Shown: positions 59,524 to 61,995 of the stretch, piece after piece | Layout: each line of letters opens with the position of its first letter | How positions within the stretch are numbered: the first letter of the stretch is position 1 | DNA from: Escherichia coli | Lineage (GTDB): Bacteria > Pseudomonadota > Gammaproteobacteria > Enterobacterales > Enterobacteriaceae | Strand: one strand, 5' to 3' | Assembly (NCBI RefSeq): GCF_003018235.1 | Contig: NZ_CP027437.1 | DNA length: 64,000 bases | Made by a program: the position numbers and the translations under genes | The notes under the pieces: model-generated | The model's database searches: none | What the model saw: only the letters and a program-made list of their open reading frames with translations | What the model was told of the DNA's origin: nothing

Positions 59524-61995
59524 TTAAGAATCAGCCTGACTCGGGATCAGTTTTTGCCAGATAACTGAAACGTATTTTGCCTGGTAACGGGCGTCATCAA
59601 GTGCATTATGGCGCTCACCTTCGAATGGAATAGCCGTTCTGGCATCGAAGTCTATGGCTTTCCCCAGCTCAACGATTGTGCGTACATCGCGATCGTTGTA
59701 GTAACGCCACGGGCAGGGGATCCCCTGCCGTTCGTATGAACGGCGCAAAATCGTGTTGTCGAAGTTGGCTCCATTTCCCCAAACCTGAACAAAAAATTCA
59801 CCGGAGTTTTCGTCGATAAATTCCCGCAATTGTAACAGTGCATCATCTAACGGGATTTCATCGGTCATAATGGCAGATTGCGCTTCGCGTGATTGCTTAA
59901 GCCACCATTTAATGGTGTCCCGATCAATGACTCCGCCAGCAGTTTCCAGATCGATAGTCTTACTAAATTCCGGTCCCATATCTCCGGTTTGCGGATCGAA
60001 AAATATTGCACCTATTGAGATGATCGGGGCATCAGGATTTTTTCCCATGGTTTCAAGGTCGATCATTAGATGGTCACACGTCCTGCTGGTGGATGTGATT
60101 TCGTGATGACCGTTCACCTTAATTGAGTGATCTGCCGTCTCGCCAGTTTCATTATCGCTATTGTGATGCTGATTGCCGCCAGTGTTCTCCTTGTGTGGAT
60201 GTTCAGCGCCTTCCATTTCCTCCGGATCATCTTCCTGAACTTCAACCTGATACTCTTCATCGAATGTTTCTTGGTATGTTGCGTCGCCCATCACCGCGCC
60301 ACAATCAGGGCAGTTGCCGCCGCCGGTCTGACCGCAGGCGGTGCAGACTTTTTCCACTTCCTGTTGCGCCACTGGTTCAGGCTGTTTCGTTTCTGGCTCG
60401 TTTTGTAACGCATTTGTGCTGTTTTGTTCCGCTTTTTGGTAGTTCCGTTCCGATTCATGCTGGTTCTGGTTCACAGAATCGCGGGTCTGGATCCCCTTAA
60501 CCCATTTCGGATCATTCGGGTCACTAATCCCTTCAACAAATTCACCACGTGATGCAGCAAGCAACTTATCGGCGTCAGGCTGGCTGATATTGGCTGCCTG
60601 CATAATTTTGTTTACTTCGTCAGCGGTAACTTTTATCGGCTCTGGTTGTTCTGAATCTTCAGCGGTATCTACATTTTGCGGTAAGCCCGTGTATGTGCCA
60701 TTTTTTCGGGCAAAATATTCTTCTTTTGTGATTTCAGTGGCGCCAGCAGCCAGTGCCTTATCCAGACCAGAAAGTTTGTTTGCGCGACCGTATTTTTCTC
60801 CGTCCTTATCTGCGAAGAGGAAATAGAACGGCCCCTCACGCTCTACAGATGGTTCAGCTTCCGGCGCGGTTTCATTTTTTGGGATATCAGATACCTCAGT
60901 TTCCACTGCATCAGTTTGTGTTTCTGATGACTGGAGAACATCAACAGTGCCCAGGTCTGTTTCTTCATTCTCAAACACGCCCTTTGTCGTCAGGTATTCG
61001 CAGATATATTTGTTCAGTGCTATGGGATCTTTGTGAATGTCGATCGGACGCTCACGGACAAGGCCAAAAATAGTCTGGCGGTCGTAGCGAAGGGCATCAG
61101 GCTGTTTGCGCATTGATGCCGAGATACGCTTCCAGTCTTCGCGGTCGTTGTCGATAACTTCTTTTTTTGCCCAGCGATGGATGCTGCCGTCAATGTTTCC
61201 GGCATCCACATCACCAGGCCAGAGAGCGTAGGCCAGTTCGTCATCCAGTGTTTTCCATGTCTGCTTGTATTCGCGATGAATGGCAGCAATGACCGGGCTG
61301 ATTTTTCCTGTTGAATTTTCAGTGTACTGTTGATTGGCTCTGGCGCGGGCGAGATCAACAACAGACGTGTATTTTCCGGTTTCCTTGCGTTCACCTTCGC
61401 GACGTTTTTTCCAGATGCGCATCTCTGCCTGAATTTCGGGCCATTTAGCACCAGGAATACATTTATGCTTAACCCACCCAATGGCGTGCAACTTAAGCTC
61501 CGGATACATGGCGTTAACTTCTGGCATTTTCATCAACGCTTCAACGATATGTCCGTCGAATGTTGCCATGTCTTCCTGCAACAATTCCTGTGCGCTAATA
61601 ACCATATCAACGGTGATGTTTTCACATGTGTCGAACTTAACCATGACAGCGTTCTGTACTTCAGGGGCCAGCTTGTCAAAAGTGACGTTCATCGGATCGG
61701 ATTCAGTCTCAACCGGGACAAAAGAAGCAGACTCCTCATCCCAGCGGTTTTCCTGCATATATTCAGCATCCCATGAATCGAGGGCAGGGCGGGGTATGCC
61801 AGGTTTATCCTCGCAGACAATAAATTTATAAGCGCAGTCCTGAGCAGCCGGATAATGTTCCAGGAACTGCCAGTGAAATTTTGCTCGAGCACGGCGTTCG
61901 TCGCCAGCTTCAATGGCTGTGGCTACAGCCACAGCGCCTTCTTCCCTTGTTGCCAGTTCGTCAGGAATAGCGGCGCAAATAAAGACTTTACTCAT
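59524..61995 (-). CDS. Prophage large exonuclease-like protein with C-terminal DnaQ-like DEDDh 3'-5' exonuclease domain and a central CxxC-x9-CxxC zinc-ribbon motif
   Basis: 823-aa ORF; C-terminus carries motifs DLET, [9 protein letters not shown] and HNALDDA; middle carries [16 protein letters not shown]; acidic low-complexity linker. Confidence 0.65.
   Translation of the reverse strand: [823 protein letters not shown]

Follow-up and report, generated by a model that had tools for sequence, protein, structure and literature searches.

A full-length YdfE-family prophage protein of Escherichia coli predicted to carry a DEDDh 3′-5′ exonuclease domain on a RecE-type scaffold

What does a lambdoid phage gain from an 823-residue protein that ends in a predicted 3′-5′ exonuclease domain? 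The question arises in a window of Escherichia coli DNA (the whole stretch analyzed here, 64,000 nucleotides of contig NZ_CP027437.1 in assembly GCF_003018235.1), where an open reading frame (ORF) of 823 codons with an ATG start runs at 59524..61995 on the minus strand. All coordinates below are on that strand unless marked otherwise. An earlier reading of the window from its letters, hereafter the original prediction, had placed a prophage protein of this length here; the ORF listing confirms it as intact and on the minus strand, and a GAGG lies ~11 nt 5′ of the ATG. The protein aligns over residues 1–822 with positions 1–822 of the 823 positions of PHROG 2082, annotated “exonuclease,” and an ORF of 823 codons with E values such as those given below is far beyond chance. 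In E. coli K-12, only 767 nt from the start of the gene remain (99.9% identity), followed by the insertion sequence (IS) IS2, and this remnant is the annotated ydfE. The complete ORF in the window is the full-length form of K-12 ydfE, which IS2 has cut short in that strain. Its existence has already been catalogued, in the names given by the annotation pipeline PGAP (“exonuclease” or “3′-5′ exonuclease”), in PHROG 2082, in the Pfam families YdfE_N and YdfE_C, and in a 2025 survey in Genome Research (PMC12315714). Our literature searches returned no paper linking ydfE to any activity and no functional study of the N-terminal module.

The original prediction had recognized DnaQ-like exonuclease motifs near the C terminus, and the domain search bore this out. 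Pfam family PF16473 (Rv2179c-like 3′-5′ exoribonuclease) matched residues 642–813 (59557..60072) over model positions 2–177 of 177 with an E value of 5.2e-67, so that a DEDD fold of the Rv2179c/DexA family was found at full length; RNase_T (PF00929) matched weakly (E 0.0014). The exonuclease motifs are DLET at residues 646–649, WGNGANFDN at 739–747, and HNALDDA at 796–802, with an extra, noncatalytic DLET at 682–685. In a MAFFT alignment, D646 and E648 (motif Exo I, DxE), D746 (Exo II), and H796 and D801 (Exo III, H-x4-D) line up with D7, E9, D119, H186, and D191 of phage T4 DexA. By these alignments, the protein firmly qualifies as holding a complete DEDDh active site, and its predicted activity is that of a metal-dependent 3′-to-5′ exonuclease of the DEDDh (DnaQ-like) superfamily.

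DexA is also the only protein of known structure that the sequence reaches. A Protein Data Bank (PDB) sequence search with the whole 823-residue protein matched solely 8KEL/8KEN, whose 227-residue chain has the sequence of T4 DexA, and gave no match for residues 1–640. DexA is a 3′-5′ DNA exonuclease (PMC12153337; likewise the annotation of the T4 record). Identity between the two domains is ~28% over 72% of the domain, and both DexA and its E. coli homologue EcD belong to the same DEDDh subfamily, with the five catalytic residues aligned. However, both are stand-alone enzymes, and DexA, at 227 residues, has extra loops and lacks a RecE-like scaffold. The DexA family is widespread among phages, as is the domain studied here, which we found in 1293 phage records by tblastn. 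Rv2179c of Mycobacterium tuberculosis, the founder of PF16473, is described as an exoribonuclease; it is small and stand-alone, its genomic context is unlike that of the prophage gene, and it was not among the PDB sequence matches, so that the two are related through the family profile only. The 823-residue protein probably acts on DNA, because its nearest characterized relative is a DNA exonuclease and because the other domains found on its scaffold belong to DNA recombination.

That scaffold is where the protein meets RecE. The NCBIfam RecE model NF007259 aligned residues 246–625 with its positions 271–602 and scored 282.9 bits against a cut-off of 1269; with the match confined to these residues and the RecE nuclease domain absent, the protein is not identical with a RecE-family enzyme. 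BLASTP against a RecE that has recT downstream aligned residues 262–625 with RecE 295–608 (41% identity, E 2e-60), with near-identity over residues 470–625, including a conserved linear motif and a Cys cluster. Homology does not extend past RecE residue 608, and the only part of RecE with a solved structure, the nuclease domain (PDB 3H4R), begins at residue 622 of the same RecE. RecE 610–883, used as a phmmer query, found no match in the 823-residue protein, and the PDB search returned no match to 3H4R, whereas a true RecE matches it at E 7.5e-178. Because the homology ends just ahead of 3H4R, the exchange lies at the linker/nuclease boundary: the PD-(D/E)xK 5′-3′ nuclease of RecE has been replaced there by a domain of the Rv2179c/DexA type. 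The original prediction was thus right that the nuclease fold differs from the PD-(D/E)xK fold of lambda Exo and RecE, but the unrelatedness to RecE that it implied holds for the nuclease domain only, since residues 262–625 are homologous to noncatalytic RecE. Because these residues match the noncatalytic part of RecE, we regard the protein as a RecE-scaffold protein with a swapped catalytic domain of opposite predicted polarity.

The likeness extends beyond the alignment. RecE of the Rac prophage, like the gene studied here, encodes more than 800 residues in the early-left operon of a lambdoid prophage near xis-int; both proteins have a YdfE_C-type helical domain, a 35-residue motif, a Cys cluster, and an acidic linker, and in both the catalytic domain stands at the extreme C terminus. 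They differ in that this domain is PD-(D/E)xK (5′-3′) in RecE and DEDDh (3′-5′) here, in the first 245 residues, which are of the YdfE_N rather than the RecE type, and in their neighbors, since RecE has its partner recT downstream, whereas our gene is followed by xis and has no recT.

We then resolved the noncatalytic part into segments. The N-terminal domain (residues 1–205; 61381..61995; PF27430, YdfE_N) has an alpha/beta part at about residues 1–100 and a helical part at about 105–205. A basic connector with low model confidence (residues 206–245; 61261..61380; predicted local distance difference test, pLDDT, 42–68) leads to a helical domain (residues 246–345; 60961..61260; PF27432, YdfE_C) that is modeled at pLDDT >90 and at which the RecE alignments start. 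It is followed by a variable, acidic, Thr/Glu-rich linker (residues 346–470; 60586..60960; net charge −14) that aligns poorly with RecE and by the conserved linear motif (residues 471–510; 60466..60585), which is nearly identical in RecE. The four-Cys cluster (residues 551–565; 60301..60345) comes next, and an acidic linker rich in Glu, Gln, and His (residues 566–640; 60076..60300), inside which RecE homology ends at residue 625, precedes the nuclease. The whole of residues 511–640 has 16% Glu, 9% Gln, and a net charge of −21, in agreement with the acidic Gln/Glu-rich linker proposed originally, and this long acidic stretch is probably disordered.

An AlphaFold2 model of residues 1–350, built from an alignment of 26 diverse homologues, had a mean pLDDT of 89.8 and consisted of two folded domains and the low-confidence connector. 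A Foldseek search of the model against AFDB50 returned matches within the protein’s own family only and no functional fold relative. The original prediction could assign no motif to the N terminus, which is still true of the Pfam release that we searched; the newer families YdfE_N and YdfE_C do cover it. Membership of the YdfE family may be assigned indirectly, since PF27430 and PF27432 are precomputed on a 94%-identical cluster representative (P0001) and on 119 further relatives among the matches listed. The Cys cluster is a putative zinc knuckle with the spacing CxxC-x7-CxxC by pattern search, not the CxxC-x9-CxxC first described. All four Cys are retained in most family members that have the segment, whichever of the two nuclease types they carry; one RecE variant has three Cys only. 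We considered the cluster as a family hallmark and rejected it, for it is an optional insert that many members of both nuclease types lack.

How widely the scaffold has been combined with other domains became visible only beyond the near-identical E. coli proteins. An initial homologue search gave only the latter; the diversity came from a library of 1.84 billion representative proteins, which we searched with residues 1–635. This yielded 247 relatives, and modules were mapped on the 47 long ones. In these, the first domain is of the YdfE_N or the RecE type, YdfE_C is almost universal, and the conserved motif is frequent. The C terminus is a DEDDh domain in some (P0121, P0122, P0128, P0138, P0141, P0244, and L004) and a RecE nuclease in others (P0143, P0199, P0234, and split forms). 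In 13 representatives, it is a domain of ~300 residues that belongs to PHROG 2489, is annotated “exonuclease,” and bears the signature KKSLTDAxKKALSxLGFSADVWLGLYD; one such protein is flanked by a Gam-like gene on one side and Sipho_Gp157 on the other and is encoded upstream of xis-int. The Rad52-like relationship of paralogues is visible by fold comparison only, and a profile search of the PDB with these Rad52-like paralogues gave no sequence match. P0126 has an uncharacterized C-terminal domain (PHROG 26058); in P0126 and P0133, this module ends ...Q(Q/R)LTIAA(L/I)(H/Q)GLCANPA... and has no family annotation. An apparent RecE_N-RecT fusion, P0202, was not counted, because it starts in the middle of RecT and looks like a deletion artifact. 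The conserved motif of 35 residues occurs in DEDDh-type, RecE-nuclease-type, and other members, whatever the catalytic domain.

The YdfE/RecE scaffold is thus exchanged among a 5′-3′ nuclease, a 3′-5′ nuclease, and a Rad52/Sak-like annealase. These recombination partners are the strongest indirect argument for a role in DNA recombination or end processing, and the fusion partners of the N-terminal module favor such a role. In E. coli AR_0114, a gene next to potC (L004:3671-6112) joins a RecE-type N terminus to a C-terminal half nearly identical to ours (98% nucleotide identity), which shows that the gene has recently recombined internally, near codon 450. This mosaic gene belongs to another prophage, whose integrase and attachment site are also different.

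Where the gene sits bears on when it would be expressed and on what it might do. The window is E. coli chromosome with speG, ynfB, ynfA, rspA, and rspB up to ~57.7 kb, at which the end of a prophage begins. Next to rspB lies a tyrosine integrase ORF (57885..59180) whose NCBIfam matches all fall below their curated cut-offs; in L007, a strain with a 100%-identical exonuclease gene, the corresponding gene next to rspB is called a site-specific integrase. An excisionase ORF, annotated as such in relatives, lies immediately downstream of the 823-codon gene (59200..59451). Immediately upstream is ydfD (DUF1482, 63 residues; 62089..62280), annotated in identical relatives, and beyond it are dicB, encoding a cell-division inhibitor (62277..62465; NCBIfam NF049927, 132.8 bits, cut-off 100), and the DicF small RNA (62640..62691; Rfam RF00039, 72.5 bits, gathering score 48). 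The locus belongs to a Qin/Tritos-type lambdoid prophage and corresponds to its early-left (dicB) operon; the gene comes last in this dicF-dicB-ydfD operon, directly before xis-int, which agrees with the originally proposed location near the position of the recombination/exo genes in lambda. On the coding strand, the gap between ydfD and the exonuclease gene showed no promoter-like site, and for this reason, together with established knowledge of the dicB operon, we infer that the gene is co-transcribed with dicF-dicB-ydfD under control of the prophage repressor.

In the present strain, the site that holds ydfA/ydfB/ydfC and the operon promoter in relatives is occupied by an IS21-family transposase ORF (62933..63745, plus strand; NCBIfam NF033546, 283.6 bits, cut-off 160), ~240 bp upstream of DicF. 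It interrupts the operon ahead of the exonuclease gene and may cut dicF-dicB-ydfD-exo off from its promoter; L007 has no IS at the corresponding site. The 270-residue transposase ORF covers positions 2–257 of the 294-position model, and more ORFs follow in other frames, on to the end of the window; it may be frameshifted or truncated.

Three other functions can be weighed against this architecture and context. The first takes the family name literally: the protein would be an Rv2179c-like exoribonuclease that trims or degrades host or phage transcripts or small RNAs during induction. Its best Pfam family bears the name of the M. tuberculosis 3′-5′ exoribonuclease, many database entries for the protein read “3′-5′ exoribonuclease,” and the gene would be co-transcribed with the DicF small RNA. 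However, these names were propagated from the Pfam family and not from tests, the only PDB relative by sequence is the DNA exonuclease DexA, and every other domain with a catalytic or functional role that the scaffold carries (RecE nuclease, Rad52-like annealase) acts on DNA. We therefore consider an RNA-directed role improbable.

The second follows from DexA itself. DexA and the stand-alone E. coli homologue EcD digest DNA containing 5-hydroxymethylcytosine (5hmC), EcD digests T4 DNA and protects cells, and a defense role termed “HREX” has been proposed, all according to a 2025 paper in NAR (PMC12153337). With its distant homology to T4 DexA, the DEDDh domain of our protein might likewise selectively digest the 5hmC DNA of superinfecting T-even phages and so protect the host, and 38% of bacterial DexA homologues are found in Escherichia (PMC12153337), many of which may belong to the prophage family described here. 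We asked whether EcD could be the 823-residue protein or its C-terminal fragment and rejected this, as the EcD primers encode MIDTET...TIPETYD; EcD is a different protein. Moreover, the residues proposed for 5hmC recognition are imperfectly kept: DexA W152 corresponds to Y766, also aromatic, and D169 corresponds to A785 in an uncertain alignment with Asp nearby at 782/784. Placed last in a repressed operon and lacking a promoter-like site that would serve it alone, the gene should be silent in a lysogen, PADLOC returned no significant defense match (its sole hit, to a generic exonuclease effector, spans 23 residues with E 0.024), and the RecE-type scaffold and its annealase fusions would be left unexplained. 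The chance of a defense function of this kind appears slim.

A third proposal would have the nuclease scavenge host DNA or destroy competitor DNA, or would make it an antidefense enzyme that removes 3′-ended intermediates of immunity such as CRISPR prespacers or the DNA or RNA products of retrons and other systems. A part in breaking down host DNA is documented for DexA (T4 record annotation; PMC12153337), some CRISPR systems have their prespacers trimmed by DEDDh domains (work cited by PMC12315714), and early expression alongside the host-manipulating dicB and dicF would suit such a role. Degradation of the host chromosome, however, is not known from temperate lambdoid phages, the PADLOC search found no defense or antidefense family, and nothing points to a specific immune target. 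We hold this proposal to be rather unlikely.

We next consider whether the gene is maintained. A megablast search matched it in 4799 of the 5426 complete E. coli genomes, at up to 10 places per genome, and 3536 of these genomes hold a copy that spans 80% or more of its length. E. coli 2018-11-1BCC carries a gene annotated “exonuclease” with 100% nucleotide identity. The isolated phages HannyBb, PhiR42_1, Tritos, mEp460, Evi, and the PPompW phages have it at 87–99.7% identity, often misnamed “exodeoxyribonuclease VIII.” Pairwise comparison with the mEp460 copy gave ratios of nonsynonymous to synonymous substitution rates (dN/dS) of 0.06 for YdfE_N, 0.20 for YdfE_C, and 0.18 for the DEDDh domain; the conserved motif (residues 471–510) and the Cys segment (546–575) each had 0.19, and the linkers had 0.34 (346–470) and, for the acidic one, 0.92 (576–640). 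The protein is firmly placed under purifying selection in functional phages. These numbers bear on the reading that it is a decaying, functionless RecE remnant of cryptic prophages, for which one might cite that K-12 and BL21 hold truncated copies only and that the IS21 element in the window separates the operon from its upstream part. This reading is contradicted by the intact ORF, the retention of all catalytic residues, and a dN/dS well below 1 in every folded part; in addition, every full-length entry sampled from the 3536 genomes was a complete “exonuclease” gene, and the gene is present in the complete genomes of the isolated phages HannyBb, Tritos, and mEp460. It is disfavored to the point that we give it hardly any credence.

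The company that the gene keeps is as informative as its sequence. We compared eight independent contexts: L007, HannyBb, mEp460, Tritos, L004, and three divergent DEDDh-type relatives, with three complete phage genomes among them. The order in all of them is repressor, small ORFs, DicB or KilR, usually DUF1482/YdfD, exonuclease, in some xis, and int. None of the eight contexts contains an annealase or an inhibitor of RecBCD (Gam), and direct searches of the early regions of HannyBb and mEp460 with RecT and Rad52-like profiles found nothing. The original prediction had suggested looking for an adjacent annealase (RecT or Erf) beyond the IS; with intact relatives lacking one, we rejected that candidate.

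The survey of lambdoid recombination modules (PMC12315714) arrives at a corresponding class. It describes DnaQ-like 3′-5′ nucleases in early-left operons, and its Table 1 lists a “Tritos” class of four phages with a nuclease and many Chi sites but without annealase, single-stranded DNA-binding protein, or anti-RecBCD function. Tritos carries our gene (99.1% nucleotide identity), although the text of the survey, as far as it was available, gives no domain architecture, RecE-scaffold relation, or function for the Tritos nuclease. The survey also mentions “RecE-2” proteins, which have no nuclease domain and to which it assigns no known role; these may plausibly be the Rad52-like paralogues. In the Tritos genome, we counted nine Chi sites on the top strand and two on the bottom strand, with Chi among the five commonest octamers. 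The gene itself contains a Chi octamer, GCTGGTGG, at window position 60085 (plus strand) and also at L009 position 27079. In Tritos, the Chi site inside the gene is one of the nine in the predominant orientation.

We propose that the protein is a 3′-5′ DNA exonuclease that is brought by its RecE-type scaffold to intermediates of phage recombination or replication, and we put the chance of this at about even. The gene would be expressed early after induction or infection, as the last of the repressor-controlled early-left operon. The scaffold would then target or regulate the nuclease at the ends of linear phage DNA or at recombination and replication intermediates, where the nuclease would remove 3′ single-stranded tails or resect 3′ ends. 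Host RecBCD, which needs nearly blunt ends, could load on ends trimmed in this way and promote Chi- and RecA-dependent recombination and the formation of concatemers. The idea of cooperation with RecBCD comes from the carriers, because these have neither an annealase nor a RecBCD inhibitor and one of them at least, Tritos, abounds in Chi. The trimming of 3′ tails to let RecBCD load is speculative but coherent. A model for it is offered by E. coli ExoI (SbcB) and ExoX, which trim 3′ tails and so affect whether the RecBCD or the RecF pathway uses an end. They share superfamily and polarity with our protein; however, both are housekeeping enzymes of the host that lack a scaffold of the RecE type, neither has a detectable sequence match to it, and the likeness in role is of our own drawing.

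Several points weigh against this proposal. That the substrate is DNA, that the scaffold targets the nuclease, and that the protein cooperates with RecBCD are all inferred, the last purely so. Rv2179c, the founding member of the Pfam family, has been described as an exoribonuclease, so that an RNA substrate keeps some probability. Chi was counted in the genome of one carrier phage, Tritos. The charge of the scaffold is net negative, and no DNA-binding fold is recognizable in it. Finally, the survey remarks that DnaQ-type 3′-5′ exonucleases usually, and “curiously,” inhibit homologous recombination and that sporadic DnaQ-type genes by int are not necessarily members of recombination modules (PMC12315714).

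The exchange of domains on one scaffold also invites a more general proposal. The YdfE/RecE module would be a recombination hub that tethers varied DNA-processing domains to a single host partner at DNA ends, and its DEDDh version would work together with RecBCD in Chi-rich phages that lack an annealase and Gam. This seems to us unlikely.

What follows most directly concerns names. The label “exodeoxyribonuclease VIII” is wrong for the 823-residue protein, and “exonuclease” is wrong for its Rad52-like paralogues. The gene is among the commonest prophage genes of E. coli; the interest that remains lies in the function of the shared scaffold and in why Chi-rich phages without a recombination module of their own keep a 3′-5′ exonuclease. 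To our knowledge, the role of the ~600 noncatalytic residues of RecE has never been explained, and a scaffold shared across catalytic domains offers a handle on this puzzle: find its partner. For recombineering, too, a RecE-like scaffold whose nuclease runs in the reverse direction could have practical appeal. Should the enzyme help Chi-rich phages without a recombination module of their own to use RecBCD, it would supply a mechanistic piece for the recently described RecBCD-dependent class of lambdoid phages, and the hub proposal, if true, would reveal a viral strategy of feeding the host’s break-repair machine instead of inhibiting it.

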